Below, in pieces: positions 7,105 through 42,777 of a stretch of 53,269 nucleotides of DNA (its first letter is position 1; the number at the start of each line of letters is the position of its first letter). A model generated the notes under the pieces. It made no database searches, was not told where the DNA came from, and saw only the letters and a list, made by a program, of their open reading frames with translations. The translations under genes were made by a program, and so were the position numbers. The DNA lies in the NCBI GenBank assembly GCA_964574525.1, contig CAZNOE010000002.1, positions 1 to 53,269 of the forward strand, given 5' to 3'. Origin of the DNA: an uncultured Bifidobacteriaceae bacterium. GTDB lineage: Bacteria > Verrucomicrobiota > Verrucomicrobiia > Limisphaerales > JADLHS01.

Positions 7105-8685
7105 TCAATCCAGCGGTTGTTTTTCGAAATCCGATTCTTCCACCCAACCAGCCTTCAATTTCTCGCCCCTCATGTAGCGCTCGTGGAAGTTCCGCTGGCC
7201 GGCGTTGGCGTAAGGGTATTGCTCGAACACCTCGCCCCGTCCGTACATCCTTGGGTCCTCTTGCGCCTTGAGTTCGCTGACCATTTGCTGCTCCAGTTCG
7301 CGCTTGCGATCGGCGAATGACGGGTCAGTGGCCAGGTTGCTCACACAGTCCGGATCCCGCTTCAGGTCGTAAAGTTCTTCCGAGAGACGCTTGCCGAAAC
7401 AGAGCGCCCAATGCGGATCGGCCATGTTCTTGCGGTGGGCGTCTAGGATGAAGGTCTTCGTGGCACCGGCGTCGCAGTTGAGATAGCCGGTTTCGGGGTT
7501 GCCCGCAGGCCAGCGGTTCGTCTCGTAGTTCCGGACGTAAAGCAGGTCGCCCTTGATGATGCCGCGAATCGGGTAGCCCCAATCGTGTGGGCGGCCGACA
7601 TCATGCCGTTCTTTGCCAATCAGGACGTGGTCGCGCGCCGGGTTCAAGGTACCGGTCTTTTCGGAGAACAGTATGTCCGTGAGACTGCGCCCGGCGGCGG
7701 CGGGCATGCCGGTTTGCGCCCATTTCAATCCTGCCAGCTCGATGAAAGTGGGGGCGAGGTCAATGAAACTCACGATGTCGCGCACCTTGCGGCCCGGCTG
7801 CTTCAGCCCGTTCTTCCACATCATCGCCAGCGGGATGTGATTGGACGGTTCGTAGGCCTGGCCTTTGACCCGCGGGAACGGCATGCCGTGATCGGACGTA
7901 ACCACCACCAGGGTGTTGTCGAGCAGGCCGCGCTTCTCCAACTCGGCGAGCATCCGGCCAAGATGCCGGTCGAAATGCTCCACCTCGAAGGCGTAGTCCA
8001 GCATGTCGTTCCGGACCGTTTCGTTATCGGGCCAGCAGGCGGGTACGCGGTCCACATCGGTGGTCTTCTTGCCGCCTTTCGTCACGCCGGAGCCGTACTC
8101 ATAGCCACGATGCGGCTCGAGCGCACCATACCAGAAGCACCACGGCTTGCCCTTGGGAGCGGCGTCCAGGAAGTCGGTGAAGTTCGCGGCGTAGTCGCTC
8201 GGCCCAATCCCGGAGGCGGACGGTTTCGCGGTGCGGGCATTGAACGCCTTGCCAGTCATCTGGCGCGGCTTGCCGACGGTGTTCGTGGCGATGCCGGGCG
8301 CCCAGCCTTTCGTGGTATGACCGGCGAACCAACCCTGCTCGTCGAGCGCCTCGAAGAAGGTTTTGAACTCGGGTGGAAAGTACGGGACGTGGTTCGCCGC
8401 CGCCTTGAGCTGCCACGAGTTGCGACCGGTAAGAATACAGGCCCGGGACGGCGCACACTTGGCATTCGGCGTGTAGGCGTGCGAGAAGAGAATGCCCTGG
8501 TCCGCGACCCGGTCGAACGCCGGCGTTTTGACCCACTTGCAACCGTAAGCGCCAGCGTGGCCATAGCCCCAATCGTCGGCGATGGCAAAGAGGATGTTGA
8601 GACGTGGGTGCTCGCCCGCCCCGACCGTGAGAGATGACCAGGCGAGCGCCCCCAGCAGCAACGACAAAAGTGATTTCGATTTCAT
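7105..8685 (-). CDS. Formylglycine-dependent sulfatase (arylsulfatase-type, S1 family), secreted
   Basis: ORF 7105..8880 trimmed to ATG 8685 ([23 protein letters not shown] signal). Contains [12 protein letters not shown] (C-x-P-x-R formylglycine motif), ADDWGYG near the N-terminus and [11 protein letters not shown]. The start overlaps the upstream stop as ATGA (8682-8685). Confidence 0.9.
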
Positions 8686-10010
8686 CCGAGGGACCAAGGT
8701 TTGCGGTATTCGCGGCCCAGCAGCTTGCTGGCTTCGGTGTCGCCGATAATGACTTCGCGCTGCGCGTCCCATCGGATCTTGCGCCCGGTCCACATGGCGA
8801 TCAAACCGAGGTGGCCGGGCACTGCCGAATGATGCGCCGTCTCGACCGGCGTGATGGTGGGCTTTCGGGACTTCACGCAATCGAGGAAGTTGCGCTGGTG
8901 CCCCGGGGACTCGTAGAGCTTCACCTTGCGCTGCTCGTCCGGCAGTGAAGTCATTTCAGTCCAGGCCTCGTTCGGGGCGCTGAAGGCACCGCGCGTCACA
9001 TGCACCCAGCCGTCCGTGCCGATCCATTTCGTGCCGCCTTTGATGTCGGGATATCCACCCGCAATGACCATTTCGATGTTGTTCGGGTATTTCAGGTTGA
9101 GGCGGTACTTGGTGCAAGTATTCCACACGGCGTCCTTCGGCGGGAATTCGCCAACGCCCTCGATCTCGCTTGGGCCGTTGTCATCGAAACCCAAACCCCA
9201 GTGCGCGATATCCACGTGATGCCCCACCCAGTCGAGCAACTGCCCGCCACCGGTGTTGTAGTTCCAGCGCCAGTTTTTGTGTACCTGGCATTCCCGGTAA
9301 GGCATCACCTGTGACGGCCCGATCCAGGTCTCGTAATCCAGCTCGACCGGTGGCGCGGTGATTTGGTTCTTGTCCTTCGTCTTGGCGAAATCGTTGTGCC
9401 CGGCAGGCAGGCCGACTTCCACCCGCGTGATCTTGCCGATCAATCCATTGCGGACGATTTCCGCCGCCTTGTGAAAGTTTCGCTGCGATCGCTGCCACGA
9501 GCCGGTCTGCCAGATCCGTTGGTTTTGCTGCACGGCCTTCACCATCGCCTGCTGCTCCGCAATGGTCCGGGCGAGCGGCTTTTCGCCAAAGATATCCTTC
9601 TTGTTCCGGGCCGCCTCGACCGCCGCCAGGCAATGCCAGTGATCCGGCGTCGCCATCATCACCGCATCAATGTCCGGGCGGGCACACAAATCGCGATAAT
9701 CGGCATAAGCTTTGCAATCCTGGTTCTTGTAATGGCCGTTGACCTTCTGCACGGCGTTGGACAGATGCGTCCTGTCCACGTCGCAGACCGCCACGACTTG
9801 ACAATCCGTCTCACGCAGAAACGCGCCCAGGTTCGATCCGCCCTGCCAACCGCAGCCGATCATGCCCAAGGTGATGCGATTGGACGGCGCCGGTTTGCCA
9901 GCCTGCCCAAACACGCTGGACGGGAGAATGGTGGGCGCGGCCACCGCCAAGGCAGCGGTGGCGAGAAACTGGCGACGATTGAAGCGAACTGAGTCTGGTT
10001 TTGTTTTCAT
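8682..10010 (-). CDS. Gfo/Idh/MocA-family NAD(P)-dependent oxidoreductase with twin-arginine (Tat) signal
   Basis: N-terminus [26 protein letters not shown] (RRxFL Tat motif). Rossmann motif [11 protein letters not shown], plus ATPDHWH and GEKPLA typical of the family. Confidence 0.85.
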
Positions 10011-10071
10011 ATCTGGTCGGTTCGTTTGCTGGTTGAATCTGTCTTTGTCGGCGCGCCCGGCGAGGCCGGTT

Positions 10072-11055
10072 TCATTGCTTCACACGATAGAACTGCGCGG
10101 GGTTGGTGGTAGGTTGCAAGTAAGGACTGACCGCACCGGAGGCATCGCTCCAAGGACCCAAGACGTTGGTCGCAGTCTGGAGCGTGCCGCCGCCAGCCCA
10201 CTGAAGTTGGATTTGTCCACCCGACTGGATTGAGGACTCTAACGATGTCCGGATCGTGACGGAAACCACCGCCGAAACTCCCGTGGCACCCACATTGTCG
10301 GTGGCCATCGCCGTCAGGTTGTGACGTCCAGCCGGCGCATTGGTCCAAGTGAAACCAAATGTCGGCGCGTTCGTGGACTCGCCGATTTTCGTCGTGCCCG
10401 CGACAAAGTATTCGACCTTCACAACGATTCCGTCCGGATCGCTCGCGTTAGACGCAATCGGAATGTTCGCTCCTCCGACAAACACTGCTTCGGCAACAGG
10501 CTGGGTGATGCTCACGGTGGGACTAATCGGCGCGATGTTGGTTACGCTTAGATTGTCGAAGTAGTAAAACTCGTCATTGGCGGTAACCGAGGTTCGAACG
10601 ACCACCTGGAGGTTCGTTCCTGTAATACCGTTTTGTGTCCAGTTCGTCGCTGGTAGCAGACCAATGACCTGACGCAAGGGTGTTTCCCGACCACCATTGG
10701 TCTTTATGTAAAATCGCACATAGTCAGAGGCATCCAAACCGCCAGCGCCCTGCACTCCGAGTGAGAGGTTCACCGTGCGACCCGAAATATCAATGACACC
10801 CGTCGTGAACACGCCCTCGCCGCCACTACCATTGACTTCCAATCTGTCGCCTGAGACGCGGAAAGTTCCTCCGCGCGTCGCAGTCCAGGAAGCAGGCCAT
10901 GCTTGGCTGGTGGTGCCCGTAGCCAGACCGTTGAAATTAACGATCCAGGGGAGCGGTTCGCCGAACGAGACTCTGTAGTTCGCTATCACGTTCTTGTCTC
11001 CAGCCTGCTGAGTTTTGATCGGAGCGCCATCGGCTGCCCGGCGATCGGGACGCAT
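10072..11055 (-). CDS. Stand-alone CBM-like beta-sandwich + Ig-like domain + shared C-terminal '...FYRVKQ' module; no recognisable signal peptide (possibly a truncated module)
   Basis: 327-aa ORF starting at ATG 11055. ...DEFYYFDNLSVTNI resembles the end of a carbohydrate-binding module. SDPDGIVVKVEYF...WTNAPAGRHNLTAMATDNVGATG is Ig-like. The last ~54 aa are near-identical in pattern to the C-terminus of 11111..14179. The N-terminus MRPDRRAADGAPIKTQQ is not signal-like. Confidence 0.6.
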   Translation of the reverse strand: MRPDRRAADGAPIKTQQAGDKNVIANYRVSFGEPLPWIVNFNGLATGTTSQAWPASWTATRGGTFRVSGDRLEVNGSGGEGVFTTGVIDISGRTVNLSLGVQGAGGLDASDYVRFYIKTNGGRETPLRQVIGLLPATNWTQNGITGTNLQVVVRTSVTANDEFYYFDNLSVTNIAPISPTVSITQPVAEAVFVGGANIPIASNASDPDGIVVKVEYFVAGTTKIGESTNAPTFGFTWTNAPAGRHNLTAMATDNVGATGVSAVVSVTIRTSLESSIQSGGQIQLQWAGGGTLQTATNVLGPWSDASGAVSPYLQPTTNPAQFYRVKQ

Positions 11056-11110: not shown

Positions 11111-14100
11111 TCATTGTTTCACGCGAAAGAACTGCGCGGGGTTGGTGGTGGGTTGCAGGCGAGGACTGACTGCACCCGGAACCTCGCTCCAAGGCCCTGA
11201 CACGTTGGTCGTAGTTTGGAGCGTGCCACCCACCCATTCGAGTCTCAGTTGTCCCCCTTGGAGTACCGGCGGCTGAACCCAGCTCGGCGGGGCGGCGACC
11301 TGACCGACCGCCCAACTAACGGCCGCATCGAACAGCTTCAATCCGTCGGCGTTCAACGAGGCAAACGTGTTGTTTTGCAGAAACAGGTGGACACGCTGCG
11401 CGGGAGCGGTGCCAGCAGTCATCGCCGCCCCGGTTTCATAGGCGTAAAGGCAGGGATGACTGCTGCCATCATTCAGGCGGGCGATGGTGATCGGACTGCC
11501 GCCGGGTTCACCCCAGGAAAAATCGCCGGCCACGGTGGCCACCGTTCGAGTCCCGGCAGCCAGACCCGCAGCCAGGGGGTGACCAACGTTGGTGATGATC
11601 AGATTCCTCTGGGAAGCGGTGAAATAGCGGGCGGTGTTCGCGTCGCCGGTGAACCCGTAGTCGTCCTCCAATCCATACTCCCAGTTGATGACCGGCACGG
11701 CGACGTCGCGGAATTTCGTGTTCACCTGCGCGGAACTCACCGTGGCGGAGGTGAGGATCACGGCCTTGCCGGTGGCATCCGCTGTAGAGGCCAGATCGTC
11801 ACTGACGACCTGAACGGTGAACCCGTAGTTCTGGAGCCGGTTGCGGATGGCGGTGTCTGACGCTCCCAGGCTGGCGGCATCGCCCACGACGAGCAGCACG
11901 CTGTTGCTGCCCGGGGTATTAGTGATGACGGTCAGCGGCGCCGGGATGTCGGCGTTTACCCGGGTTTGAATGCCAGCAATGTCCACGACGGTCAGGCCCA
12001 TGCGGGTCAAGACCTGCTGGACATATTGGGTGGACCACAGGGCGGAATACTGACTCCAATGATTGGAGGCGGTAATCAAATGCGTGCGCGCGTTGGCGTG
12101 GTGGTTGGTCAGACCGGTGCTCTGATAGCGATAGAGGTCCACCGCCCCGCGAATTTTCTCCGCGTAATAACGCCCGAGCCAGCCCATCGCATTGATGTCG
12201 CCCAAGGTCAGGCGCAGTTCCTTGTTGGTACCCAGGCTCAAGGCCTGGACGCTCGCCAGGCCGTTGTCCGCGTATTGCTGCAACAGATCGGCGACCTGCT
12301 CGGGATTGAGTCTGCCGTTCGCGGCGTCGCCATTCACGTATTGCTTCACCGACATCAGCAAGGGGCGGTCACCATCCTCGCCCGACTGCATGGGATCCCA
12401 CTGCGGGTCAATAAAGCTCTGCACTGTTTTGAATCCAGAACTCGACCAGCACGCTTCGGGATACCATTGGAAATCCAGCGCGCCCCAGTAGAACCGGGTG
12501 AGCAACGGCAGAATCTTCGAGACGGATGCCCAGCCCTGGAAAAGGTTGCTGCTCGTGACTTCCGGGAATCGCTCACCCACAATCGCCTCGAAGCGGCTGT
12601 TGGGAATTGCCGGATCATAGGCCAGCCGGCCGTAGAGCAAAAAGGAATACCACATCTTCTCGATGACGAGCTGGCGGGGCGACTCGGGTTCCGTACTGAG
12701 GTATTCGCGGCCCCAGGTGTAGCCGTCCGGGCCCATGTAGAATCCGGCGATCTTCGAGAGGGTGGGGAGATTCGTCATATAGGCTCGGGCAAAGTCTGGA
12801 TCGCCCCAGCGCAGATAATACATGTCGTCGTTGCGGACGGTCAGGAAGACTCTCTTCCCGGCCGGGATCGTGTTGAACCAGTTGTTCTGGTAAATGAACT
12901 GCGGCTTTGTGGACGAATGCATGTGCGCCTGGGAATACTTGAAACTGAACGCGAGGGTGGAATCCGGATTGGTGGAACCGGACAGCGGCTGGAAATAGTT
13001 GATGATCTCGTTGAGATCCGCCTGATGCGCGCGATGGACCAGGCGGATGACCCGACCGGGCGCATGGTAAGGACTGGCCGCGTTCTGGGCGTCCGCCATC
13101 GCGTCGGAAACGCCCAAGCCGTAGGTATCCCACGCCCACTGTTCCTCTGCCGCGTTGCTGATCCCGCCCATGTTCTCGCCGGTCGTAATCCCAACGCCCG
13201 CCAGCAGCGGGTAGGTATTGAACAGGGCGCGCACGGATTTCCGGAAATAGTCCTTCGTGGTCACGTTTGAAGGGTCAACGGTGATGCCGTAACCGCTCGG
13301 CTCCGTGCCATAGACGAAGATATTCCAGGTGAACACGTAGAGATGGATGCCGCGATCCTTGGCGTACTGCATCACCCACCGCCAAAACGCGATCTTCTCG
13401 TCCATGGTCATCGTCTTCAACGTCGTCAACGTCCATGACGGATTATACATTCCCGTGCCGGTGCCGGAGGCATCCCACAAGGCTCCCGATTTCTGCTTCA
13501 CATCCGCCAGCGCCACGTTGGGATACTCAGGCACGCGCACGAGCGAGGGAAACGGGTGAAGACTCCACAGCGAAAGCAAATTGTAGCGATGCCGGGCCAT
13601 GTTATCAAGGAAGCCGGTCCAGAAATTGGTTTCCCACATGTTGGCGATGTTGGCCTGCGCGGAACTCGAATCGTCCGAGTAACTGGGGCTGCGCGCGTCC
13701 AGCGGGATGTTGAACTTGATGCCGCGGTTGGCGAGATGCGGATTGGTCTGGCGATTGGTCACGCCGGCCAAGCCGTCTGCCAACTTCACCGCCTCCGCCA
13801 ATTCAAGGCCGCCATACATCGCTCCGGGAGCATCCTGGCCAATGACCCACCAGTTGGTCGCCGCACCGTCCACCACCCGTTGGATCGCGTAACCTTGGTT
13901 GGTAATCCCCGCGATGGTCGGCATGCCCGGCACGCTGGCATCCGAGGTGGTCAGGATGATGCGCACCGATTGCGTGGCCCCGGACGGATCGCTGAGTGGC
14001 AGGTCAGTCACCGAATGGCCGGTCTGCACCAGCGCCGCCTTCAGATCGCCTCCGGCGAAACTGATGGTGCGAACGCCGGAATCATATATCAAGGCAGCGG

Positions 14101-14179
14101 GCGTTTGCGCTTGCGCCACGGTGCTGCCCACGATTCCGGCCAGCAGCACCGCCGTTGCTTTCAACTTGGAGCCAATCAT
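11111..14179 (-). CDS. Secreted glycosidase-like family protein, paralog 5, extended by an unassigned alpha/beta domain (11306-11902) and the C-terminal '...FFRVKQ' module (11114-11305)
   Basis: The ORF-track start at 14197 is TTG; the first ATG is 14179 (MIGSKLKATAVLLAGIVGSTVAQA signal). The first ~740 aa are collinear with 37180..39480 and show high identity by eye. The extra ~280 aa begin at ...SVLLVVGDAASLG. Confidence 0.88.
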   Translation of the reverse strand: MIGSKLKATAVLLAGIVGSTVAQAQTPAALIYDSGVRTISFAGGDLKAALVQTGHSVTDLPLSDPSGATQSVRIILTTSDASVPGMPTIAGITNQGYAIQRVVDGAATNWWVIGQDAPGAMYGGLELAEAVKLADGLAGVTNRQTNPHLANRGIKFNIPLDARSPSYSDDSSSAQANIANMWETNFWTGFLDNMARHRYNLLSLWSLHPFPSLVRVPEYPNVALADVKQKSGALWDASGTGTGMYNPSWTLTTLKTMTMDEKIAFWRWVMQYAKDRGIHLYVFTWNIFVYGTEPSGYGITVDPSNVTTKDYFRKSVRALFNTYPLLAGVGITTGENMGGISNAAEEQWAWDTYGLGVSDAMADAQNAASPYHAPGRVIRLVHRAHQADLNEIINYFQPLSGSTNPDSTLAFSFKYSQAHMHSSTKPQFIYQNNWFNTIPAGKRVFLTVRNDDMYYLRWGDPDFARAYMTNLPTLSKIAGFYMGPDGYTWGREYLSTEPESPRQLVIEKMWYSFLLYGRLAYDPAIPNSRFEAIVGERFPEVTSSNLFQGWASVSKILPLLTRFYWGALDFQWYPEACWSSSGFKTVQSFIDPQWDPMQSGEDGDRPLLMSVKQYVNGDAANGRLNPEQVADLLQQYADNGLASVQALSLGTNKELRLTLGDINAMGWLGRYYAEKIRGAVDLYRYQSTGLTNHHANARTHLITASNHWSQYSALWSTQYVQQVLTRMGLTVVDIAGIQTRVNADIPAPLTVITNTPGSNSVLLVVGDAASLGASDTAIRNRLQNYGFTVQVVSDDLASTADATGKAVILTSATVSSAQVNTKFRDVAVPVINWEYGLEDDYGFTGDANTARYFTASQRNLIITNVGHPLAAGLAAGTRTVATVAGDFSWGEPGGSPITIARLNDGSSHPCLYAYETGAAMTAGTAPAQRVHLFLQNNTFASLNADGLKLFDAAVSWAVGQVAAPPSWVQPPVLQGGQLRLEWVGGTLQTTTNVSGPWSEVPGAVSPRLQPTTNPAQFFRVKQ

Positions 14180-14260
14180 GTGTGCACTTTTCGACAACCG
14201 TATCTCTTGCCCTTCCTTGCATGGCCTCCGTTCGCGCAGAAGGCATCGTCTTATTGCAAA

Positions 14261-19527: not shown

Positions 19528-19790
19528 GCTGACAGCCCAGTTTGCACTGCAAGCGACACGTGGACGTACGGACCGCAGCAGTGCATGATCTTCAAGCTTA
19601 CCCAGCACTAATGCCACAAGGGCGGCGGGTATTGATAGCTGCACAATGATGTAGTATCGGCCTGGTCGCGCCCGTTCCGGGAAGCGAGGGGGACTCGGCA
19701 TCACCGCCGGCGGGCACATGCTGGGCGACAAGCCTACAAGCCCGGCATCGAAACACGGCCAGCGGCGTACTCACGGTGAAGTCGTGATGG
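19528..19790 (-). promoter_or_regulatory. Conserved non-coding leader, copy B
   Basis: Homologous to 18440-18690. Core at 19632-19654. The hairpin at the equivalent position uses a different stem sequence (19543-50 tgcactgc / 19578-85 gcagtgca) and lies 16 nt upstream of the ATG. Confidence 0.55.
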
Positions 19791-22647: not shown

Positions 22648-22760
22648 AGCATATTGCAGGAACCTCGATCCTGGTCAGGCTGCTGCGGCAGTGGCAGACC
22701 CAGTTTTCAACCGCCGTTTATAGCAAATCGGATAACCAAGCTGAGAAAGTAAATCGTGCC

Positions 22761-26153: not shown

Positions 26154-26211
26154 TTCCCGGCAACCGGGTCGTCAGCTTGCGGCGCGCGGTTGCCGCTCTT
26201 TATTTGACGCT

Positions 26212-31774: not shown

Positions 31775-32550
31775 GGTTTTGATTGTTTGGGTCGGTCAAA
31801 CTTTCCCGGCGCAGCCGGCGCACGGCGCGGCGGCAATTCCATCGGCAGCGCGTAACGCTCCGGATGCCCGGTGATGAAGCGGATGTTCTTCAAACGGATG
31901 GCGCTCTGTGCAGCCTTGGGGTTGTTGCCGAGGGAGTGAATCTTGAAGGCGATGCGGCCCTTCCGATATTTTTCATCCACCAGATGGCAGGTCGGCACAC
32001 CGTTGACCCAGACCTTGATCGTCGCACCGATGCACTCGATGCGGAAACGCGCCCACTCGCCGAGCTTGAACGCGGCGCGGCCACGCTCGTTGTCCGCCAG
32101 ATCGTGCAGCCACTTCCAGGAATCGCCGAAGTCATCGAAGACGCCGCCAGTCCAGGCGCGCGGAGTGTTGTCAATTTTGACCTGATACGCGTTGAGCCGC
32201 ACCTTCGCGTCGGCGGAGGCATCCACGCAACGCAGCAAAATGCCGCTGTTGAAGCCGGGATCGTCCTTCACATCGAGTTCCAGGATGAAATCGTCGTATT
32301 CGCGCTCCGAGGCGACGAACGTGTGCTCAATCGTGTTGCTCCGTTGCCGCAGCACCATCGCGCCGTCCTCGACCACGACGGGCGCGGGATTGGTCAGGGC
32401 GACAATCTTCCAGCCGGTCAAGTCCCGCCCGTTGAAGAGCGACACCCAGGGCTCAGCGGCAGCCTTCGGCTCAGCCGCGTCCAGACACAATGCCGAAGCC
32501 AACGATGCCAAGATCAAGGGTTGAGCGAATCCCAGCGACCGACGTTTCAC
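31771..32550 (-). CDS. DUF1080 (Pfam name: 3-keto-disaccharide hydrolase) domain protein, secreted
   Basis: Motifs WVSLFNGRDLTGWK ... GRIAFKIH...IRLKNIRF. The ORF-track start at 32652 is TTG and overlaps the upstream gene. I chose GTG 32550 (VKRRSLGFAQPLILASLASALCLDA signal); GTG 32565/32580 are alternatives. Confidence 0.75.
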   Translation of the reverse strand: MKRRSLGFAQPLILASLASALCLDAAEPKAAAEPWVSLFNGRDLTGWKIVALTNPAPVVVEDGAMVLRQRSNTIEHTFVASEREYDDFILELDVKDDPGFNSGILLRCVDASADAKVRLNAYQVKIDNTPRAWTGGVFDDFGDSWKWLHDLADNERGRAAFKLGEWARFRIECIGATIKVWVNGVPTCHLVDEKYRKGRIAFKIHSLGNNPKAAQSAIRLKNIRFITGHPERYALPMELPPRRAPAAPGKFDRPKQSKP

Positions 32551-35200: not shown

Positions 35201-36475
35201 TTACGCTTTGCGTTCACTCTTTTGATACGTGGCGGCTTTCAACCACTCCGGATTGACCTTTACGCCCCAGCCCGGGCCGGCTTCGAAGCTCGCCCGGCCG
35301 TCCTTCACAAACGGGCTCGGGCCAAAAAGCTGGGTTGCCTGCTGGTTCACGCCGCCAGGTTCGATGCTCCATTCCATCATCGGGCCGGCGTTTGGCAGGG
35401 CGGCAAAGAGGTGCAGCGTGAACAGCGTGACCATTGAATGATTCGCCGAGTGTGGCACAACGGTTTTGCCCGCGAGTCCCGCCAGCAATCCCACCCGCCA
35501 GGTGCGCGTGATGCCACCGAGGTAAAGCACGTCCGGCTGCACGATGTCCACGGCGTTCATCCGAATCATGCGCCGCCATTGCGCGAGGTCGTTGTCCTGC
35601 TCGCCGCCCGCGACCTGGATTTTCAATGCACCGGCGACTTCCGCCGTCCATTCCAGCTCCCAATACGGACACGGCTCTTCGTAGTGGTTGTAGCCCTGAT
35701 CTTCCAGGATGCGGCCGATGGCGATGGCGCGCGGCGGGGTGAAGCCGCTGTTGGCGTCGGCCTTGAGTGCGACGGCGTCGCCGAGCGCCTTGCGCACCGT
35801 GGGAATGATTTTTTCACTGCGACCCGGCGCGGCGTCCAAGTCATGGCCATTTTCCTTGGCGACGCGGATTTTGAATCCGCGAAAACCCTCAGTGTCGCGC
35901 AGTTTCACCAGTCGTGCGGCTTCGTCCTCCGGCGAAATCGTCCGGCTCATGCTCGAACCATAGGCGGGCAGCGGACGCACCTTGCCGCCGAGCAATTCCG
36001 CGACGGGTTTCTGTTTGATCCGGCCATAAAGATCCCAGATGGCGGTGTCCACGCCGCCAATCGCGCGGCAGACGAACGACCAGGGGAACTTGTGGTTGGC
36101 GTCAATGCAGTGATCCACAATAGCGTCAATGTCCGCCGGGTCTTTGCCCAGCACCAGCGGCGCGATCTTGCGGTGGAGCGTCAGCACGCTGATCTCAGTT
36201 TCATAGGTGGCAATCTGGCCGTAGCCTTCCTGACCGTCAGCAGTCGTCACGCGCACGATGGCGAACATGCCTTGGTTGAACGTCTCGATCTTCTGGATGA
36301 TGCGGCCCGGTTCGATGACGCGAAACTCGGTGTAATCGTCAGGTCGCCCGTGGTAGGAGTAACTGCGCTTGACGGGCACGGCAACAGACTCCGCCGCCGA
36401 ACCGATTCCTGGCAATCCAATGGCCGCGCCCGAAGTGAGCACGGTCGCATTCTTCAAGAATTCCCGGCGTTGCAT
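35201..36475 (-). CDS. Enolase-superfamily enzyme (mandelate racemase/muconate lactonizing enzyme family, acid-sugar-dehydratase-like) with Tat signal
   Basis: The ORF-track start 36481 is TTG; the first ATG is 36475, giving MQRREFLKNATVLTSGAAIGLPGIGSA (near-consensus RREFLK Tat motif). Metal-ligand and catalytic motif order FKIRVA, KADANSGF, YEEP, AGGEQD, IVQPDV, VPHS. Confidence 0.85.
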   Translation of the reverse strand: MQRREFLKNATVLTSGAAIGLPGIGSAAESVAVPVKRSYSYHGRPDDYTEFRVIEPGRIIQKIETFNQGMFAIVRVTTADGQEGYGQIATYETEISVLTLHRKIAPLVLGKDPADIDAIVDHCIDANHKFPWSFVCRAIGGVDTAIWDLYGRIKQKPVAELLGGKVRPLPAYGSSMSRTISPEDEAARLVKLRDTEGFRGFKIRVAKENGHDLDAAPGRSEKIIPTVRKALGDAVALKADANSGFTPPRAIAIGRILEDQGYNHYEEPCPYWELEWTAEVAGALKIQVAGGEQDNDLAQWRRMIRMNAVDIVQPDVLYLGGITRTWRVGLLAGLAGKTVVPHSANHSMVTLFTLHLFAALPNAGPMMEWSIEPGGVNQQATQLFGPSPFVKDGRASFEAGPGWGVKVNPEWLKAATYQKSERKA

Positions 36476-36536: not shown

Positions 36537-37151
36537 TCATTGGCCTAGCGGCCTCAACTTAATATTGCGAAACTTGACCATCCCTTGCCCCTGGAACTGT
36601 TGCAATCCGATCGGCCCGAACTTCTCACGATCATCGTGTGTATCCACAACCACGCGACCATCGAACCGCACCACCAAATGATTGCCCTGCGCGGTGATGT
36701 GGTAGCTGTTCCAGCGGCCAGCCGAGCGGATGTCGCCCTGCCGCAGAGCGATTTCGTTGATGCTGCCGGTCGGCCATTTCAAGTGCGCGTCGTAGATGTT
36801 CACTTCATACGCATTGGTTGCGGAGATTGGACCACTGATCGGACAACGCAGGAACACGCCGCTGTTTGCCACCGCGTCCACCCAGAAATCCACTTTCAAC
36901 TCGAAGTTGTCATAGCTCTTCGCCGTGCAGAGAAAGCCCGGGCCAGTGCCAGCGCGATACACGATGGCCCCGTCCACCACGTCCCAACGCGCCTGGTCGC
37001 GCGGCGTCCAGCCGGCCAGGCTTTCGCCGTCAAACAACGGCACCCAGCCGGCCTGTTTTTCGACGGGTGTGAGTTGGTTCAACTTCAGATCGGTCGTGGC
37101 GCAACCCGCGAGCAACCCCAGCGCACAGAGCGAGAGATATTTGAGGTTCAC
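36537..37151 (-). CDS. DUF1080 domain lipoprotein
   Basis: GTG start at 37151. Lipobox (M)NLKYLSLCALGLLAGC. Motifs WVPLFDGESLAGWTP ... GPIGLQQFQGQGMVKFRNIKLRPL. Confidence 0.75.
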   Translation of the reverse strand: MNLKYLSLCALGLLAGCATTDLKLNQLTPVEKQAGWVPLFDGESLAGWTPRDQARWDVVDGAIVYRAGTGPGFLCTAKSYDNFELKVDFWVDAVANSGVFLRCPISGPISATNAYEVNIYDAHLKWPTGSINEIALRQGDIRSAGRWNSYHITAQGNHLVVRFDGRVVVDTHDDREKFGPIGLQQFQGQGMVKFRNIKLRPLGQ

Positions 37152-37179: not shown

Positions 37180-39480
37180 TCATGGTGATTTCGCCGGGCG
37201 ATTCGTGCTGGTGATTTCCGCTGGAATGTCCGTGTCCACCTGGGCTTGGATGCCCGCGATGTCCACGGCCGTCAGTCCCATGCGCGTGAGCACTTGCTTG
37301 ACGTATTGCGAGGACCATTGCACGGCGTATTGCTTCCAAAAATTCGAGGCCGCAATGAGATGTTTCCGTGCCTGGGCATGATGGGTGGCTTCACCGCCGG
37401 TTTCATATCGGTAGAGCGCCACCGCACCGCGAATTTTTGCCGCGTAATAATTTCCGAGCGCCGCCATCGCCTTGATGTCGCCCAACGTCTGGCGCAGTTC
37501 CTTGTTTGTTCCCGCGTCGAGTCCGGCGATGCTGCCTAGTCCGCGCTCGGCGAACTGTTGCAGTTGATCCGCCACCTGTTCGGGAGTCATGGGCCCGTCA
37601 GGTTTCGCGCCGTCCACAAAATCCTTCACCGACATCAGCAACGGTCGGTCGCCGTCAGCGCCTGCTGGCATCGGACGCCAGCGGGGCTTGATGAAATTCT
37701 GCACGCTCTCAAATCCCGCGCTGCTCCAGCAGGCCTCGGGATACCATTGGAAATCGAGCGCGCCCCAGTAGAACCGCGTGACCAGCGGAATGATTTTGGA
37801 AACCGACGCCCAACCGGAAAAAAGTTTCTCCGCAGAAACCGTGGGGAAACGTTCGCCTATAATCGCCTCAAAGCGGCTGTTGGGAATCGTCGGATCGTAG
37901 GCGAGCCGCCCATAGAGCAGGAAGTAATACCACATCTTCTCGATGACCAGTTGCCGCGGCGCATCCGGCTCGGTGCTCAAGTATTCGCGCCCCCAGGTGT
38001 AGCCGTCCGGGCCGATATAGATGCCCGCGATTTTCGACAGGTCCGGCAGGTTGGCGAGATAAGCCCGCGCAAAATCGGGATCGCCCCAGCGCAGGTAATA
38101 CATGTCGTCGTTCCGCACGGTGAGGAGGATTTTGCTCCCGGCGGGGATGTTCTGGAACCAGTCCCTGCGGTGGATGAACAGCGGCTTGGTGGAAGAATGC
38201 ATGTGTGCCTGGGAATACTTGAAACTGAACAACAGGCTCGATTCTGCATTCGTGCGCCCGGGCAACGCCGAGAAAACATCAATGATCTGCTTGAGATCCG
38301 CCTCATGCGCGCGATGGATGAGGGTGATCTTGCGGTCCGGCACGTTGAAGGGGCTGGCGGGATTTTTCGCGTCAGCCATCGCATCGGAAACGCCCAGTCC
38401 GTAGGTGTCCCACGCCCATTGTTCTTTCTGTTCGTCGTTGCTGCCCCCCATGTTCTCACCGGTGGTCAGCCCCACGCCCGCCAGCAATGGATAGGTGTTG
38501 CACAGGGCGCGGACGGATTTCCGGAAATAATCCCTCGTGATCGCGTTGGTGGGCGAGTCCGTGATGCCGTAACCGCTGGACTCCGTGCCATACACAAAAA
38601 TGTTCCACGTCATGACGTAACATTCGATGCCGCGATCCTTGGCGTATTGCATGACCCAGCGCCAGAAAGCGATCTTTTCCTCGATGGTCATCTTTTTTAG
38701 GGTCGTCAGTTCCCAGGAGGGATCATACATTTTCATGCCCCTGAGGGTGGCATCCCACATCGGCCCGGCTCTCCGCTTCACATCCGCGAGCGCCACGTTG
38801 GGATACTCCGGCACGCGCACCATCGAGGGGAACGGATGCAGGCTCCAAAGCGAAAGCAGATTGTAGCGATGCCGCGCCATCTCATCCAACATCCCGGCCC
38901 AGAAGTTGGTTTCCCACATATTGGCAATGTTGGCCTGCGCGGAGTCTGAATCATCCGAGTAACTCGGTGTGCGCGCGTCCAGCGGGATGTTGAACTTAAT
39001 GCCGCGTTTCTCCAGATACGGATTGGTCTGGCGGTTCGTCACGCTGCCCAGGCCATTGGCCAGTTGCAGGGATTCGGCGAGTTCCAACCCGCCATACATT
39101 GCGCCTGCCGCGTCATTGCCAATGACCCACCAGTTCGTCGCCGCGCCGCTGGCGACGAACTGGATGGCGTAGCCCTCGCGCAAAATTCCCTTCGTCGAGG
39201 GTTGACCGGGCAGCTTGGCGTCCTCGGTGGTGAGGATGATACGGACGGTTTGCTTCGCCTGCGCCGGATCGCCGGGCGGCAACACCGTCACCGTATAACC
39301 GTTTGCCGTCAGCGCCGTCTTCACATCGCTTGCGCCAAAGGCAATCGGACCGACCTTCGCATCATACATCAGGGCAGCGGGCGTTTGCGCGCGGGCCAGA
39401 GTGACAGCCACCACGGCAGCAAACAGGACTGCTGCCAATCCTGCGCTGAATGATTTAATGCGTTTTGACTTTCTGATCAT
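37180..39480 (-). CDS. Secreted glycosidase-like family protein, paralog 8 (closest to 11111..14179 but lacking its C-terminal extension)
   Basis: 766-aa ORF with signal ...AAVLFAAVVAVTLARA. Motifs GNDAAGAMYGGLELAESL, KRGIKFNIPLDARTPSYSDDSDSAQANIANMWETNFW, RNDDMYYLRWGDPDFARAY, etc. Confidence 0.9.
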   Translation of the reverse strand: MIRKSKRIKSFSAGLAAVLFAAVVAVTLARAQTPAALMYDAKVGPIAFGASDVKTALTANGYTVTVLPPGDPAQAKQTVRIILTTEDAKLPGQPSTKGILREGYAIQFVASGAATNWWVIGNDAAGAMYGGLELAESLQLANGLGSVTNRQTNPYLEKRGIKFNIPLDARTPSYSDDSDSAQANIANMWETNFWAGMLDEMARHRYNLLSLWSLHPFPSMVRVPEYPNVALADVKRRAGPMWDATLRGMKMYDPSWELTTLKKMTIEEKIAFWRWVMQYAKDRGIECYVMTWNIFVYGTESSGYGITDSPTNAITRDYFRKSVRALCNTYPLLAGVGLTTGENMGGSNDEQKEQWAWDTYGLGVSDAMADAKNPASPFNVPDRKITLIHRAHEADLKQIIDVFSALPGRTNAESSLLFSFKYSQAHMHSSTKPLFIHRRDWFQNIPAGSKILLTVRNDDMYYLRWGDPDFARAYLANLPDLSKIAGIYIGPDGYTWGREYLSTEPDAPRQLVIEKMWYYFLLYGRLAYDPTIPNSRFEAIIGERFPTVSAEKLFSGWASVSKIIPLVTRFYWGALDFQWYPEACWSSAGFESVQNFIKPRWRPMPAGADGDRPLLMSVKDFVDGAKPDGPMTPEQVADQLQQFAERGLGSIAGLDAGTNKELRQTLGDIKAMAALGNYYAAKIRGAVALYRYETGGEATHHAQARKHLIAASNFWKQYAVQWSSQYVKQVLTRMGLTAVDIAGIQAQVDTDIPAEITSTNRPAKSP

Positions 39481-39482: not shown

Positions 39483-40814
39483 TTATTGAGCCGTAGAAAT
39501 GGTTACTTTGTGAGCAAGCGAATTATACCCTGTGGCGTCTTCCCAAACATCTTTGTTCGCCAAGCGAATCGAATACTCCGGTCGGTTACGGAGGCTGGTT
39601 GCCGGATCAGGGAGGTTCAAATAAACGGCATACACTCCTTCAGGGGTGGAAGCCGGGATAAGCGCCGCCACTTCCACGGCAACGGATGAATCGGTCATGC
39701 ACCAGCGCCGAGGGTCATTGGTGAGCTTGACGATGATTTCGTTTTTGGTCGCAGTATTCCGGAAAACCAGTTCGCAGTCGCGTTTGTTGTAAATTTTACC
39801 CCAGCCCACATTCATGAGGTTGATGGTTCCGGAGAATTTACTTCCGGCTTTGACGGCATCCGGCAGTTGGGCGCTGGTCATCGTTATCCGGTAGCCGAGG
39901 CCCTTCGCGATCGTGTCGTAGCACCCCGCGTTTCTCCACCCTTGGATCACACCTTTATGAAAGGTGCTGTTAATGGTATCCCAGTGCATTCGCTTCAGGT
40001 CGGCCATGGCCTTTTCACACTCCGAATAGGAGGATACGCCACAAGATTCGCCGCCTTGGGGAACATACCGGTTATCCTGACTCAAATAGGTCTTCTGCCA
40101 CTCGATCGATTGCGCGCCCTGATACGTTCCTCGGTCGCCCACGTCATAGCCGATACAGTCATTATGGCTGCCGGTGCGGGCTTGATAGGATTCATTGAAG
40201 GCCGAATCCGGCCCGAGCGGAACATCACCGAAAATATCGCGCTTATGAAAGTTGTATCTCATTGCCACCATGCGACCAGGCACGGCATCGAGAAGTTTGA
40301 ACAGAACCGCTTTGCGGCTCTCCGTGTTACTGATGCTGTTTGTCTCTTTGCAACTCCAGAAGTGCCATTCACCCCACCGGCCGATCAAGCCGGCTTCGAT
40401 GAACGCAATAATGTCCGAATTCGTTCGCAGAACCGGAGTGAGCTGTTCGATGTGCTTGAGAATCCGCTCCAGCGGCGGAGTTTTGCATGCGCCGAAATTG
40501 TAAGCAAAACGCGGAATCAGTTTTGCACCTTCCCGGCGTAAGACCGCAGCATCGCTATTGATTCCGTCAAAAACCGACTGGGGAAGCACATCGGTGTCGC
40601 AATACGGCTCCAGGATGTAGTACTTGCGAGCCAGCGTTATCCCCTCCTTTCGCGCGGCCCGCAAGGCCTCGGCGGAAACGCTGGTGATGTAAAATCCCCT
40701 TTCCGGATTGGGAAAATTCGAGGAATCCTCCTGATAGGTGAGCGTGGCAGCACTTGCGATGGCGGTTGTCGCGAGCAGTATGCACAAGCCGACCGAGAAT
40801 TCATTGAATCGCAT
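39483..40814 (-). CDS. DUF4874/DUF4832-type protein (glycosidase-like TIM barrel + beta-sandwich), secreted
   Basis: ORF trimmed to ATG 40814 (MRFNEFSVGLCILLATTAIASA signal). NPERGFY near the N-terminus, GRWGEWHFW, LGYRI; assigned from memory of these DUFs. Confidence 0.6.
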   Translation of the reverse strand: MRFNEFSVGLCILLATTAIASAATLTYQEDSSNFPNPERGFYITSVSAEALRAARKEGITLARKYYILEPYCDTDVLPQSVFDGINSDAAVLRREGAKLIPRFAYNFGACKTPPLERILKHIEQLTPVLRTNSDIIAFIEAGLIGRWGEWHFWSCKETNSISNTESRKAVLFKLLDAVPGRMVAMRYNFHKRDIFGDVPLGPDSAFNESYQARTGSHNDCIGYDVGDRGTYQGAQSIEWQKTYLSQDNRYVPQGGESCGVSSYSECEKAMADLKRMHWDTINSTFHKGVIQGWRNAGCYDTIAKGLGYRITMTSAQLPDAVKAGSKFSGTINLMNVGWGKIYNKRDCELVFRNTATKNEIIVKLTNDPRRWCMTDSSVAVEVAALIPASTPEGVYAVYLNLPDPATSLRNRPEYSIRLANKDVWEDATGYNSLAHKVTISTAQ

Positions 40815-40840
40815 GAACACTCCCTGGTTTGTCAAAGGGT

Positions 40841-41932
40841 TCACGCGCCCAGATCCCAGCGCCGGAAATAGAGTCCCTGGCGGACAATGGGCAGGGTGCG
40901 TTCCTCCAAAGCCTGCATCTGCTCCCGGCTCAAGGGGACAAAGTTCGCCGCGAATTTCACGTCTTCTTCGAGCTGCGCGACGTTGTCCACGCCCACGATG
41001 TTGGTGCTGACCGGCAGGGAAGAATTGTAGGCGAACGACTCGGCCATGGTGATCGTGCCGGGCTTGGTCGTGCGCATGCGCTCCGGCTGCTGCTCCAACG
41101 GATCGGGCTTCCAGGTGGAGAGCATGCGCCCGCGCGTGGCGACCTTCATGCCGATGATGCCCATCTGCTTTTCCAAGGCGGTCGGCAGCAGGTGGTCAAT
41201 GAAACTGAGGTAATGCCGGTCCGCCGCGTTCACCGCCATCAGGATGCAATCCAGTTCGGCGCGTTGAATCATTTCGCGCAGCACCTTCGGCTCGAAATGG
41301 CCGGTCACACCGATGAAGCGGACCAACCCCTCGGACTTGGCCTTCTGAAACGCCTTCAACGCACCATCGGGCGCAAGCAACCGGTCCACGTCCGCCATCT
41401 TCTGCAGATTGTGAATCTGCCAGAGATCAAGATGGTCGGTGTGCATTCGCTTGAAGCTGGTGTCCAGGTGCGCCATCGCGCCGTCGTAGTCGCGCTTCCC
41501 GGTCTTCGAGGCGAGAAACACCTCGCGCCGCCGGTCACGCACCACCAGGCCGACGTGCTCCTCGCTCGCGCCGTCGCCGTAGACGTTGCTGGTGTCGAAA
41601 TAGTTCACGCCCAGATCCAGCGCCCGGTTCATGATCTCAACCGACAACTTCTCATTCCCCTTGATCTCAATGGCGGCCTGGCAGCCGAGGCTGAAGATGC
41701 CCACGCGGAAACCGGTCTTGCCGAGATTGCGCATCGGCATGGCGGCGGCGGTGCGCGGATTGAAAGGCAAGGGGCGTTGGTTACCCGTCGGAGCGACCGC
41801 TGCGCCCGCCGGCTCCTGCGCGCTGGCGGTTGCGGCCCGGCTGGCGGCAATCGCCATCGAAGCGGCGAGCGTCGTGCCGAGAAATTCCCGGCGACTCCAG
41901 GTTTTGTTGGAAATGTCGTCTGGTGTTTTCAT
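40841..41932 (-). CDS. Aldo/keto reductase with Tat signal
   Basis: ORF trimmed to ATG 41932, giving MKTPDDISNKTWSRREFLGTTLAASMAIAASRA (RREFL Tat motif). AKR motifs LGKTGFRVGIFSLG, GVNYFDTSNVYGDGASEEHVG, LASKTG, FIGVTGH. Confidence 0.8.
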   Translation of the reverse strand: MKTPDDISNKTWSRREFLGTTLAASMAIAASRAATASAQEPAGAAVAPTGNQRPLPFNPRTAAAMPMRNLGKTGFRVGIFSLGCQAAIEIKGNEKLSVEIMNRALDLGVNYFDTSNVYGDGASEEHVGLVVRDRRREVFLASKTGKRDYDGAMAHLDTSFKRMHTDHLDLWQIHNLQKMADVDRLLAPDGALKAFQKAKSEGLVRFIGVTGHFEPKVLREMIQRAELDCILMAVNAADRHYLSFIDHLLPTALEKQMGIIGMKVATRGRMLSTWKPDPLEQQPERMRTTKPGTITMAESFAYNSSLPVSTNIVGVDNVAQLEEDVKFAANFVPLSREQMQALEERTLPIVRQGLYFRRWDLGA

Positions 41933-41985
41933 GGTGGTATTTTGATTTGGCTGGCCGTGGATTTGATTTATTTGGTAACCGAACT

Positions 41986-42777
41986 TCATGGCGGATTGGA
42001 ACGCGGGGCGGAAGGCTTTGACTCCGAAGCGCTTCCTTGATCCAGTTCGCGCACAAAAATGTCTTTGAACCGGATGCGCAGCTGATCCTTCATGTGCAAT
42101 TGCAGTGCGAAATGACCGGTGCGTCCGACGTTCTTTTCGCGGTGCGCCGCGTTGTCCAAGATGCCCGTGCCGTCCCAATCCGCACAGACCACGCCGTTGA
42201 CGACGGTTTTGATGTGCGTTCCCCGGGCGATGATTTTCAGGTCATTCCAGCCGTTGCCATCGTCCCAAAACTTGAACACATGGCCGGCGGGCTTGAACTC
42301 AGCGTCAATCTTCGAGTCCGGCAGGCTCGGCGAAACCCAGCGCTGCTCGCCGCGTGTCTCATCGTAGATGAGGCCAGTGCGCCACGCCTGATTCGCGGGC
42401 GGATGGATGTCCACCTGCGGCCCATTCATCCAGCCGTTCTTGTCGTTGGTGTCGTAACGGCTACGAAACTGGATCCCGCTGTTGCCGGGCGAATTGGTGT
42501 GAGCCTGAAACTTCAACTTGAGTTCAAAATCGCCATACTCTTTTTCGCTGACGAGCCAGCAATAGTCGTGGTCCGGCCGACCAAGCGAATCGCACAGGAC
42601 CGTGCCAGCGTTAACCTGCCAGAAGTATTTGCTCTGATCCCCCGGTTGGCATTGGACGGTCCAGCCGGAAAGATCCTTCCCATTGAACAGGGAGATCCAT
42701 CCGCTTTCAGCGCCGACACAGGTGGCAACTGCGACCTTTGCCAGTGACAGCACGAATAGGACTCTGTTTATTTTCAT
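41986..42777 (-). CDS. DUF1080 domain protein, secreted
   Basis: Signal MKINRVLFVLSLAKVAVATCVGA. Motifs WISLFNGKDLSGWTV ... GHFALQLHMKDQLRIRFKDIFVREL. Confidence 0.75.
   Translation of the reverse strand: MKINRVLFVLSLAKVAVATCVGAESGWISLFNGKDLSGWTVQCQPGDQSKYFWQVNAGTVLCDSLGRPDHDYCWLVSEKEYGDFELKLKFQAHTNSPGNSGIQFRSRYDTNDKNGWMNGPQVDIHPPANQAWRTGLIYDETRGEQRWVSPSLPDSKIDAEFKPAGHVFKFWDDGNGWNDLKIIARGTHIKTVVNGVVCADWDGTGILDNAAHREKNVGRTGHFALQLHMKDQLRIRFKDIFVRELDQGSASESKPSAPRSNPP

Follow-up and report, generated by a model that had tools for sequence, protein, structure and literature searches.

A candidate periplasmic keto-sugar gene set interleaved with a GH138-like glycosidase family in a polysaccharide-utilisation-type island

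Cleavage of glycosides by successive oxidation, elimination, hydration and reduction has been described for BT2156-BT2160 of B. thetaiotaomicron and AL1-AL5 of Alistipes (Liu et al. 2021, PMC8121099; Nasseri et al. 2024, bioRxiv 10.1101/2024.03.25.586180). In this route the Gfo-type enzyme BT2158/AL3, exported by the twin-arginine translocation (Tat) pathway, oxidises C3 with tightly bound NAD and later reduces the product, while 1,2-elimination and hydration fall to the TIM barrel BT2156/AL1 and the DUF1080 protein BT2157/AL2. Characterised DUF1080 proteins are 3-keto-glucoside lyases or hydratases, and the sugar-isomerase-like TIM barrels include 3-keto-glucoside lyases and one 3-keto-glucoside 4-epimerase. 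Here, we analyzed a stretch of 53,269 nucleotides (hereafter the window; contig CAZNOE010000002.1, assembly GCA_964574525.1) from an uncultured bacterium of the Verrucomicrobiota lineage. The window carries the same three families, namely a Tat-exported Gfo/Idh/MocA oxidoreductase, DUF1080 proteins with a signal peptide or lipobox, and a sugar-isomerase-like TIM barrel, all predicted to be periplasmic, and these genes are interleaved in operons with copies of a glycosidase family related to GH138.

The Gfo and sugar-isomerase-like superfamilies are also combined in DgpA/DgpBC and CarA/CarBC, which deglycosylate C-glycosides, in LgdA/LgdB of levoglucosan catabolism and in E. coli YcjS/YcjR, in which C3 oxidation is followed by chemistry at the activated C2 or C4. 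Unlike the set in the window, these enzymes are cytoplasmic and the two genes are adjacent. ThuA and ThuB reportedly form a 3-keto-trehalose system in rhizobia and Agrobacterium; a passage in a paper citing that work refers to ThuAB as a periplasmic 3-ketoglycoside dehydrogenase. Comparative genomics of Planctomycetes has described DUF1080 and PF01408 as expanded 'unclassified putative glycosidase' families, and the sections of these papers that treat the families give copy numbers and transcription on xanthan and report no operon-level interleaving with a GH138-like family (PMC5352709, PMC7397252, PMC5673643). The families found in the window are the same ones, highly multiplied and mostly exported in bacteria of the Planctomycetota-Verrucomicrobiota-Chlamydiota (PVC) group with large repertoires of carbohydrate-active enzymes (CAZymes).

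Domains were assigned by Pfam scans of 30 candidate proteins, to which NCBIfam, PDB, blastp and Foldseek comparisons were added, and export signals were judged by direct reading of the N-termini. The original prediction had named six exported proteins, a Tat-Gfo, a Tat-TIM barrel, a ThuA-domain protein and three DUF1080 proteins. All six genes were found where they had been placed, with the domains and export signals assigned to them, and the PF06439 domain ('3-keto-disaccharide hydrolase' in Pfam) is almost complete in each of the three DUF1080 proteins. The genes of this set and the interleaved paralogs are as follows (ORF, open reading frame; HMM, hidden Markov model).

1-408 (fragment), 423-2621 (ORF to 2696), 2630-4843 and 4873-7065, minus strand: GH138-like paralogs 1-4 (blastp, family HMM; gaps of 8-39 bp)
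8682-10010, minus strand: Tat-exported Gfo/Idh/MocA oxidoreductase (Pfam GFO_IDH_MocA and GFO_IDH_MocA_C2; Tat motif NRRQFL)
11111-14179 (ORF to 14197), minus strand: GH138-like paralog 5 with an extra C-terminal region (72% identity to paralog 8 over 740 aa)
27586-28578, minus strand: Tat-exported xylose-isomerase-like TIM barrel (Pfam AP_endonuc_2, 3.6e-30; Tat N-terminus LNRRSFISRTAILTAATG, NRRSFI)
28600-30765 (ORF to 30957), minus strand: GH138-like paralog 6, the copy that diverges most (25-28% identity to the rest)
30776-31774, minus strand: Sec-exported ThuA-domain protein (Pfam ThuA, 1.5e-29; signal ends ALHA/AD)
31771-32550 (ORF to 32652), minus strand: DUF1080-a (Pfam PF06439, 5.5e-34; Sec-like signal)
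32598-34850, minus strand: GH138-like paralog 7 (blastp; weak GH67N match)
35201-36475, minus strand: Tat-exported MR/MLE protein of the enolase superfamily, acid-sugar dehydratase-like (Pfam MR_MLE_C, 2e-46; QRREFLK motif)
36537-37151, minus strand: DUF1080-b, a lipoprotein (Pfam PF06439, 2.8e-38; lipobox LLAGC)
37180-39480, minus strand: GH138-like paralog 8, the modelled copy (AlphaFold2, Foldseek)
39483-40814 (ORF to 40844), minus strand: exported DUF4874 and DUF4832 protein (Pfam 1.5e-31 and 1.1e-59; 2 bp before paralog 8)
40841-41932 (ORF to 42178), minus strand: Tat-exported aldo/keto reductase, AKR (Pfam Aldo_ket_red, 7.4e-30; SRREFLG after ATG 41932)
41986-42777, minus strand: DUF1080-c (Pfam PF06439, 2.4e-33; Sec-like signal)

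With refined start codons, 19 co-directional genes run from 52678 down to 27586 (array 1). The gaps between them are all 61 bp or less, except for 350 bp between the Tat-MR/MLE gene and paralog 7, and five ATGA overlaps occur, that of DUF1080-a and ThuA among them. The array opens with a cytoplasmic module (Iso_dh, cyclase-family hydrolase, major facilitator superfamily (MFS) transporter, signal-less Gfo, VOC protein, DUF1537 kinase), continues with two GH140-like DUF5060 genes, DUF1080-c, Tat-AKR, DUF4874/4832, paralog 8 and DUF1080-b, and ends with Tat-MR/MLE, paralog 7, DUF1080-a, ThuA, paralog 6 and the Tat-TIM barrel. Paralog 6 follows ThuA by 10 bp and precedes the TIM gene by 21 bp, and DUF1080-a, ThuA, the TIM barrel and two paralogs form one five-gene operon. 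Array 2, on the same strand, comprises paralog 5, a Big_7 protein, the Tat-Gfo, a sulfatase whose start overlaps the Tat-Gfo stop (ATGA), and paralogs 4 to 1. The two gene orders on which the original prediction rested (paralog 7, DUF1080, ThuA, paralog 6, TIM; and DUF1080, AKR, DUF4832, paralog 8, DUF1080) are correct, and the short gaps and ATGA overlaps place the interleaving at the level of the operon. The AKR stands where the second order had it; the Tat motifs on the AKR and the MR/MLE protein had been overlooked. No convincing intrinsic terminator was seen inside array 1; the terminator and promoter scan was uninformative, giving fewer matches than in shuffled sequence. Rfam and tRNA scans of the window returned no RNA family and no tRNA.

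The window has about 60% G+C and is coding almost throughout. Besides the genes above, the two arrays contain the following.

7105-8685, minus strand: exported sulfatase (Pfam Sulfatase, 8.9e-38; Sec signal, start 8685)
42836-46737, minus strand: two exported DUF5060 and Collagen_bind_2 proteins, GH140/apiosidase-like (Pfam; cluster representative against the Apiosidase domain, 8.9e-16)
46742-52678, minus strand: cytoplasmic module of DUF1537 kinase, VOC/glyoxalase, signal-less Gfo, MFS, cyclase-family hydrolase and Iso_dh (Pfam, NCBIfam; ATGA overlaps)

In total, eight GH138-like genes (one a fragment), two GH140-like genes, one GH27-like gene, a sulfatase, an MFS transporter, a kinase and dehydrogenases are present. 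With its co-directional exported glycosidases, sulfatase, transporter and catabolic genes, the window is a polysaccharide-utilisation-type CAZyme island in the PVC style, without SusC/D. Its three DUF1080 genes in 53 kb correspond to 5.6 per 100 kb, compared with 0.18-0.26 in two complete Planctomycete genomes.

The paralogs had been described as an unknown family. Pfam scans of the window proteins indeed gave no match for them, and the more than 3,900 homologs detected are all annotated 'hypothetical' (clustered at 50% identity, the results of an exhaustive search gave 1,697 clusters at a limit of E<=1e-3 and 477 at the stricter limit of E<=1e-30); however, the family is not wholly unknown. 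Its seven full-length copies in the window share 25-72% identity (blastp), the eighth (1-408, minus strand) being a fragment that runs off the left end. A single paralog matched the GH138 structure 6hze (BPa0997) at 1e-14, and a 20-sequence family profile matched it with an E value of 5e-32 over positions 22-719. The NCBIfam alpha-galacturonidase model NF049878 matched the paralogs at 1e-26 to 1e-30, though their scores of 91-106 bits stay under its cut-off of 1300. Paralog 8 was modelled with AlphaFold (pLDDT 85, pTM 0.88), and the top Foldseek match of the model was GH138 6hzf/6hze (E 1.8e-30, TM score 0.70-0.71, about 765 columns, 18% identity), followed by GH67, GH84 and GH20. With GH138 BPa0997/BT0997 (6hze, 6hzf, 6hzg), an alpha-galacturonidase of rhamnogalacturonan-II (RG-II) degradation, the family has its overall multi-domain fold in common: a GH20b/GH67N-like domain at the N-terminus, a (beta/alpha)8 barrel and a C-terminal helical part.

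At 17-18% identity and with no Pfam model of its own, the family departs from GH138 in its candidate active site. E294 and E361 are reportedly the catalytic glutamates of GH138, and we take them to be so here; E361 is also named in the title of PDB entry 6hzg ('E361S'). In the profile alignment of 194 unique members, E294, the Glu of a 'GE' motif, corresponds to family residue E342, which is E or D in 97%, whereas the E361 position corresponds to family position 425, occupied by Ala in 110 and by Ser in 79. The family has a near-invariant motif of its own after barrel strand 7, R456-N457-[D/E]458-D459, in which the acidic pair D/E458-D459 is 95-97% conserved, and seven basic residues (Arg or Lys) are more than 97% invariant. 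Assignment to GH138 proper was rejected, as the score lies below the curated threshold and the second catalytic residue fails. Fold and alignment suggest a distant sister of GH138 that would still be a two-carboxylate glycosidase, probably specific for anionic sugars, for which E342 and the acidic pair after strand 7 would be enough. The paralogs and their homologs are promising candidates for a glycoside hydrolase family of their own, one in which a catalytic residue would have been relocated.

We hold with moderate confidence that the window is a PVC-type glycan-degradation island to which a periplasmic keto-sugar route has been added as a lineage-specific accessory, rather than the seat of a fixed partnership. 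In this scheme, the GH138-like, GH140-like and GH27-like enzymes and the sulfatase would depolymerise an anionic complex glycan, the GH138-like family probably removing anionic residues, either uronic-acid-type or sulfated, by ordinary acid/base hydrolysis. Sugar enzymes of normally 'cytoplasmic type' would have been inserted into the same operons in the lineage of the window and exported, the Gfo, xylose-isomerase-like TIM barrel, AKR and MR/MLE protein by Tat, presumably folded with their cofactor or metal, and the three DUF1080 proteins and ThuA by Sec or as lipoproteins. The Tat-Gfo, with tightly bound NAD(P), may act on oligosaccharides that the hydrolases are unable to degrade fully and oxidise one of their ring hydroxyls (by analogy that at C3); the resulting keto-sugar would then undergo 1,2-elimination and hydration, or epimerisation, by DUF1080 and possibly the TIM barrel, and the Gfo or the AKR would reduce the product. 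Coupling to the GH138-like family would be through a shared substrate and shared transcription and not through obligate protein partnership.

In favour of this reading, the best characterised relatives of the Tat-Gfo are BT2158/AL3, and characterised DUF1080 proteins, like some of the characterised sugar-isomerase-like TIM barrels, act on 3-keto-glucosides. The best NCBIfam match of the Tat-Gfo was the BT_2158_fam glycoside 3-dehydrogenase (1.5e-44), which it matched with 152 bits where the cut-off is 750 and over only model positions 1-265 of 487, and its best PDB matches were 8tdf (2.7e-21) and 8tdh (2.7e-19). As to the substrate, RG-II is a target of both GH138 and GH140, and DUF1537 kinases are found in pathways that break down apiose and tetronate. 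Consequently, a plant glycan containing apiose and uronate is a candidate, albeit a speculative one, and the sulfatases argue for something else or something additional.

The main rival to an accessory keto-sugar route is background clustering, in which expanded exported families of PVC bacteria and Acidobacteriota co-reside by lineage-specific accident in a generic carbohydrate island and act on different substrates. We regard this as unlikely, though a serious contender. Conservation of the association was assessed on 80 genome loci around family members (38 Acidobacteriota, 30 PVC, 12 others) and 79 metagenome loci around paralog 6 orthologs, which after removal of duplicates gave 155 loci with 1.82 Mb of flank. 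Genes were detected in six-frame ORFs with HMMs iterated from the window proteins, complemented by an all-against-all clustering census; the HMM detection agreed with precomputed Pfam annotation on one locus, L162 (= L003), the only spot-check. For each neighbour, the number of genes and loci, the fraction of genes within 1 kb of a family gene and the proximity P value were as follows.

DUF1080: 15 genes in 13 loci; 7/15 within 1 kb; P 0.006
Tat-Gfo: 9 genes in 7 loci; 3/9 within 1 kb; P 0.17
ThuA: 5 genes in 5 loci; 1/5 within 1 kb; P 0.59
Xylose-isomerase-like TIM barrel: 5 genes in 5 loci; 4/5 within 1 kb; P 0.003
Sulfatase: 29 genes in 23 loci; 13/29 within 1 kb; P 3e-4
GH140-like DUF5060: 20 genes in 20 loci; 13/20 within 1 kb; P 1e-6
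MR/MLE: 11 genes in 10 loci; 8/11 within 1 kb; P 5e-5

DUF1080 density fell from 2.4 per 100 kb within 1 kb of family genes to 0.19 at 6-10 kb, the latter being the genome-wide density of the two complete Planctomycete genomes, which carry 17 genes in 9.38 Mb and 20 in 7.65 Mb, and the overall excess was about 3-4.5 times this background. DUF1080 is thus a real but minor neighbour of the family. The original prediction would have been refuted by a lack of enrichment of its neighbours. DUF1080 is enriched, in 13 of the 155 loci, whereas Tat-Gfo shows no gradient. GH140-like and sulfatase genes are the commonest adjacent partners and, together with MR/MLE, are commoner beside the family than DUF1080, in agreement with the ranking of the clustering census. 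Same-strand adjacent DUF1080 recurs outside the lineage of the window (L040, L063, L121). The best window-independent cases for a real link are two metagenome contigs of other lineages: L121 (1-4511) carries, on one strand, a family gene 62% identical to paralog 6 between two DUF1080 genes, and L132 (1-4408) a Tat-Gfo, only 27% identical to that of the window, between two family genes. The operon overlaps, the decay of DUF1080 with distance and the recurrence in L040, L063, L121 and L132 argue against mere co-residence.

The gene content of close relatives separates a core from its additions. The closest genome relatives are metagenome-assembled genomes (MAGs) of Verrucomicrobiota at 80-88% identity and one 'Planctomycetota' MAG at 77%. 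Nearly the whole arrangement is kept in L081 (85% ortholog of paralog 8), DUF1080-ThuA-paralog 6-TIM in L083 (89%), and paralog 6-TIM in L093 and L129 (81-83%). L082 (83%) has Iso_dh, cyclase, MFS, Gfo, VOC, kinase, GH140-like, AKR and paralog 8, followed by RidA, glyoxalase and KdgT; ThuA and TIM are absent and no DUF1080 is adjacent, the lone match lying about 4 kb downstream. A DDE_5 transposase (L082, 16741-17967) just downstream of the paralog 8 ortholog is consistent with a recent rearrangement of that island. Two Verrucomicrobiota MAG loci, L065 and L089, have MFS, Gfo, two GH140-like genes, orthologs of paralog 6 (81%) and paralog 3 (82%) and a sulfatase, again with ThuA and TIM absent. 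In L063 the whole cytoplasmic module is followed by a paralog 6 ortholog (71%), a paralog 3-like gene and one DUF1080, without ThuA or TIM, and in L062 (Verrucomicrobiota MAG) the order is Tat-Gfo (88%), sulfatase (84%), paralog 3 (86%) and paralog 2 (69%). The island core recurs in L063, L065, L081, L082 and L089, and the cytoplasmic module stands beside family genes in L063, L081, L082 and L089. From this gene content, the conserved core consists of the cytoplasmic sugar-acid module, the GH140-like genes, the paralogs and the sulfatase, while DUF1080, ThuA, TIM, Tat-AKR, Tat-MR/MLE and DUF4832 are variable additions.

A number of observations weigh against a functional coupling between the oxidative genes and the family, and several of them favour background clustering. 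BT2156-2160 and AL1-5 each form one compact cluster of four to five genes, whereas the candidate genes of the window are spread across more than 30 kb in three transcription units, with glycosidase paralogs between them. About 17.6 kb lie between the DUF1080/ThuA/TIM operon and the sole Tat-Gfo, which belongs to another transcription unit, and three opposite-strand genes separate the two arrays. Around family genes in the 155 loci, the Tat-Gfo shows no proximity gradient, its density being flat with distance, and in no locus outside the lineage of the window does it occur together with DUF1080; Gfo and DUF1080 are both present only in L063, where the Gfo is of the cytoplasmic type. In all four genome loci having ThuA, it lies on the opposite strand, 1-3 kb off, and it is adjacent on the same strand only in L083, of the window's lineage. 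Three of the four adjacent TIM genes come from this lineage as well, so that the TIM P value rests on non-independent cases. ThuA-paralog 6-TIM is confined to relatives at 81-89% (L081, L083, L093, L129) and is absent at orthologous loci at 71-82% (L063, L065, L085-L090), whose orthologs adjoin GH140-like genes, a sulfatase or other paralogs; the absence of adjacent DUF1080, ThuA and TIM in L082 points the same way. Many family members stand alone, without carbohydrate genes in their vicinity (L163), and Planctomycete genomes hold 17-20 DUF1080 and 33-41 PF01408 genes each, the background frequencies being drawn from the two Planctomycete genomes only. Finally, since the family has a GH138-like fold with candidate catalytic carboxylates retained, an oxidative partner would not be needed for glycoside cleavage. 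On the other side, the overlapping start and stop codons and short gaps within long operons shared with paralogs, the density decay and the same-strand adjacency in separate lineages speak against accident.

The proteins themselves add to the points against coupling, as all candidate pathway proteins score far under the curated NCBIfam equivalog cut-offs. The original prediction had likened the set to the Gfo and xylose-isomerase-fold pairs of the Dgp, Car and Lgd systems, a likeness that did not hold at the level of sequence: the Tat-Gfo reached 56 bits against LevoglcsnDh, the levoglucosan dehydrogenase model with a cut-off of 650, and neither the AL1/BT1 lyase chains nor DgpBC, CarBC or LgdB entries were among the PDB matches of the TIM barrel at E<=10. 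Hence the TIM barrel as an AL1/BT1- or DgpBC-type lyase by homology was rejected, and with the AL1/BT2156-type 3-keto-beta-glucoside lyases it shares only the superfamily AP_endonuc_2. The three DUF1080 copies are remote from the characterised BT2157/AL2. The best PDB match of DUF1080-b was 4jqt (2.7e-20), with 8tda (BT2) only at 5.6e-5 and partial, and that of DUF1080-c was 4jqt (2e-17), with no BT2 or AL2 entry among its matches; 4jqt, far closer to the window copies than 8tda, is an uncharacterised structural-genomics entry. The conserved channel residues of BT2 are E103, N134, E164, Q166, Y190, K245, Q273 and H275. In our own alignment the NSG motif is kept in all three copies, whereas an E-x-Q-like and a Q-x-H-like motif, defined in that alignment and not in BT2 numbering, are each altered in two of the three; at the sites that read E-V-Q and L-Q-x-H in other members, DUF1080-a has Q-V-K and K-I-H. 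ThuA matched PDB 4e5v, an uncharacterised 'putative ThuA-like protein' of Bacteroidales type, at 1.6e-69. The analogy with ThuA/ThuB extends to the presence of an exported ThuA-domain protein and fails beyond it, since ThuA is flanked by DUF1080-a and paralog 6 with no adjacent ThuB-type Gfo, the nearest Tat-Gfo being about 20 kb off, and neither thuEFGK nor any ABC transporter was found in Pfam scans of the window. ThuA as the sign of a ThuAB system was therefore rejected. Judged by sequence, the window proteins are members of the respective superfamilies, while membership of the characterised subfamilies fails or is at most tentative. Of the proposed periplasmic coupling of oxidation and elimination, the repertoire of Tat-Gfo, DUF1080 and TIM stands, and the conserved module does not.

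A second alternative is that the exported Gfo, AKR, MR/MLE, TIM and ThuA proteins convert free sugars or sugar acids in the periplasm before uptake by the MFS transporter, with DUF1080 as a hydratase or binding module. The MR/MLE protein is most like aldonate dehydratases (NCBIfam arabinonate, gluconate and galactonate dehydratases, 1e-32 to 1e-38, under cut-offs). The TIM barrel resembles Hyi/OtnI, that is hydroxypyruvate and 2-oxo-tetronate isomerases, and ketose 3-epimerases: the NCBIfam models OxoTetrIsom and Hyi matched at about 1e-26, far under cut-offs, and the PDB matches were 3ngf, tagatose/psicose 3-epimerases and YgbM, with YcjR 6wn6, a 3-keto-D-glucoside 4-epimerase, weak at 2e-4. 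The adjoining cytoplasmic module is read as an oxidative sugar-acid pathway, Tat-MR/MLE is found beside the family more often than DUF1080 or Tat-Gfo, and DUF1080 overlaps CBM66 in the literature. However, the nearest characterised relatives of the Tat-Gfo act on glycosides, characterised DUF1080 proteins act on 3-keto-glycosides, and the periplasm has no obvious supply of free nicotinamide cofactor for a net redox conversion, which makes this alternative improbable. Given their Tat motifs, the AKR and MR/MLE proteins are predicted to be periplasmic, although sugar-acid enzymes of these kinds are normally cytoplasmic; in other loci, RRxFL motifs occur near family genes in 7/12 MR/MLE and 5/7 AKR proteins, and the L082 AKR ortholog has RRDFL. 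A last alternative, an obligate hybrid in which the GH138-like family, lacking the second GH138 catalytic Glu (the Ala/Ser position), depends on the oxidative set, for instance by acting on or producing keto-sugar intermediates, agrees with the co-transcription and the DUF1080 enrichment but is highly improbable, given that within 10 kb 92% of related loci lack DUF1080 and 95% lack Tat-Gfo, that orthologs function at loci without any oxidative genes and that the remaining carboxylates may suffice.

Several further features of the island were noted. Iso_dh, a cyclase-family hydrolase or SGL lactonase, MFS, signal-less Gfo, VOC and DUF1537 kinase travel with GH140-like and family genes in Verrucomicrobiota and partly in Acidobacteriota loci (L063, L081, L082, L089 and L162 beside the window), which suggests an oxidative, non-phosphorylative route for the released sugar. 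The proteins encoded at 10072-11055, 11111-14197 and 14325-17306 (all minus strand) are otherwise different and have in common a C-terminal tail of about 55 aa, GPWS...TNPAQF[YF]RVKQ, which may be a sorting or anchoring tail; ahead of it, paralog 5 and a 993-aa unknown protein share a domain of about 200 aa. Mid-island, at 17436-18212 and 18775-19731 (minus strand), lie two pseudopilin-like proteins with an N-terminal methylation motif and DUF1559, 45% identical to each other and of a type characteristic of Planctomycetota and Verrucomicrobiota. Between the arrays, on the opposite strand, are a DUF5107 and TPR protein of 1169 aa (22644-26153, plus strand) and a PQQ_2 beta-propeller protein (25942-27576, plus strand). 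The PQQ_2 and GH27-like neighbours are conserved in L081.

Returning to the island with an accessory keto-sugar route, the pathway chemistry and the expansion of these families in PVC bacteria were already known; what is new is that they are interleaved, within operons, with a large GH138-like family not yet characterised, and that a Tat-AKR and a Tat-MR/MLE accompany them. Compared with BT2156-2160 and AL1-5, the window adds these two proteins and ThuA, and no SusR-type regulator was seen in it. A bolder proposition is a hybrid hydrolytic and oxidative-eliminative periplasmic system of PVC bacteria and Acidobacteriota, combining a large GH138-sister family with a moved or replaced carboxylate, a toolkit of cofactor-loaded Tat enzymes (Gfo, AKR, MR/MLE, TIM) and DUF1080/ThuA on recalcitrant anionic glycans. 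We consider it doubtful; if true, DUF1080 and Gfo would process linkages or residues exposed by the family, and the gut 'non-Koshland' pathway would be extended to polysaccharide degradation in environmental bacteria. Biochemical proof of oxidation-elimination cleavage comes mainly from small glycosides in gut Bacteroidota, and DUF1080, Tat-Gfo, ThuA and xylose-isomerase-like TIM barrels are among the most multiplied exported families of Planctomycetota, Verrucomicrobiota and Acidobacteriota, almost none with a known substrate. If the genes do not act together, the window is an ordinary PVC carbohydrate island. If they do act with the hydrolases, the island offers a concrete co-transcribed context (GH138-like, GH140-like, sulfatase, sugar-acid module) in which to find that substrate, and would make it possible to examine whether, on complex anionic polysaccharides, oxidative cleavage adds to the work of classical glycosidases.

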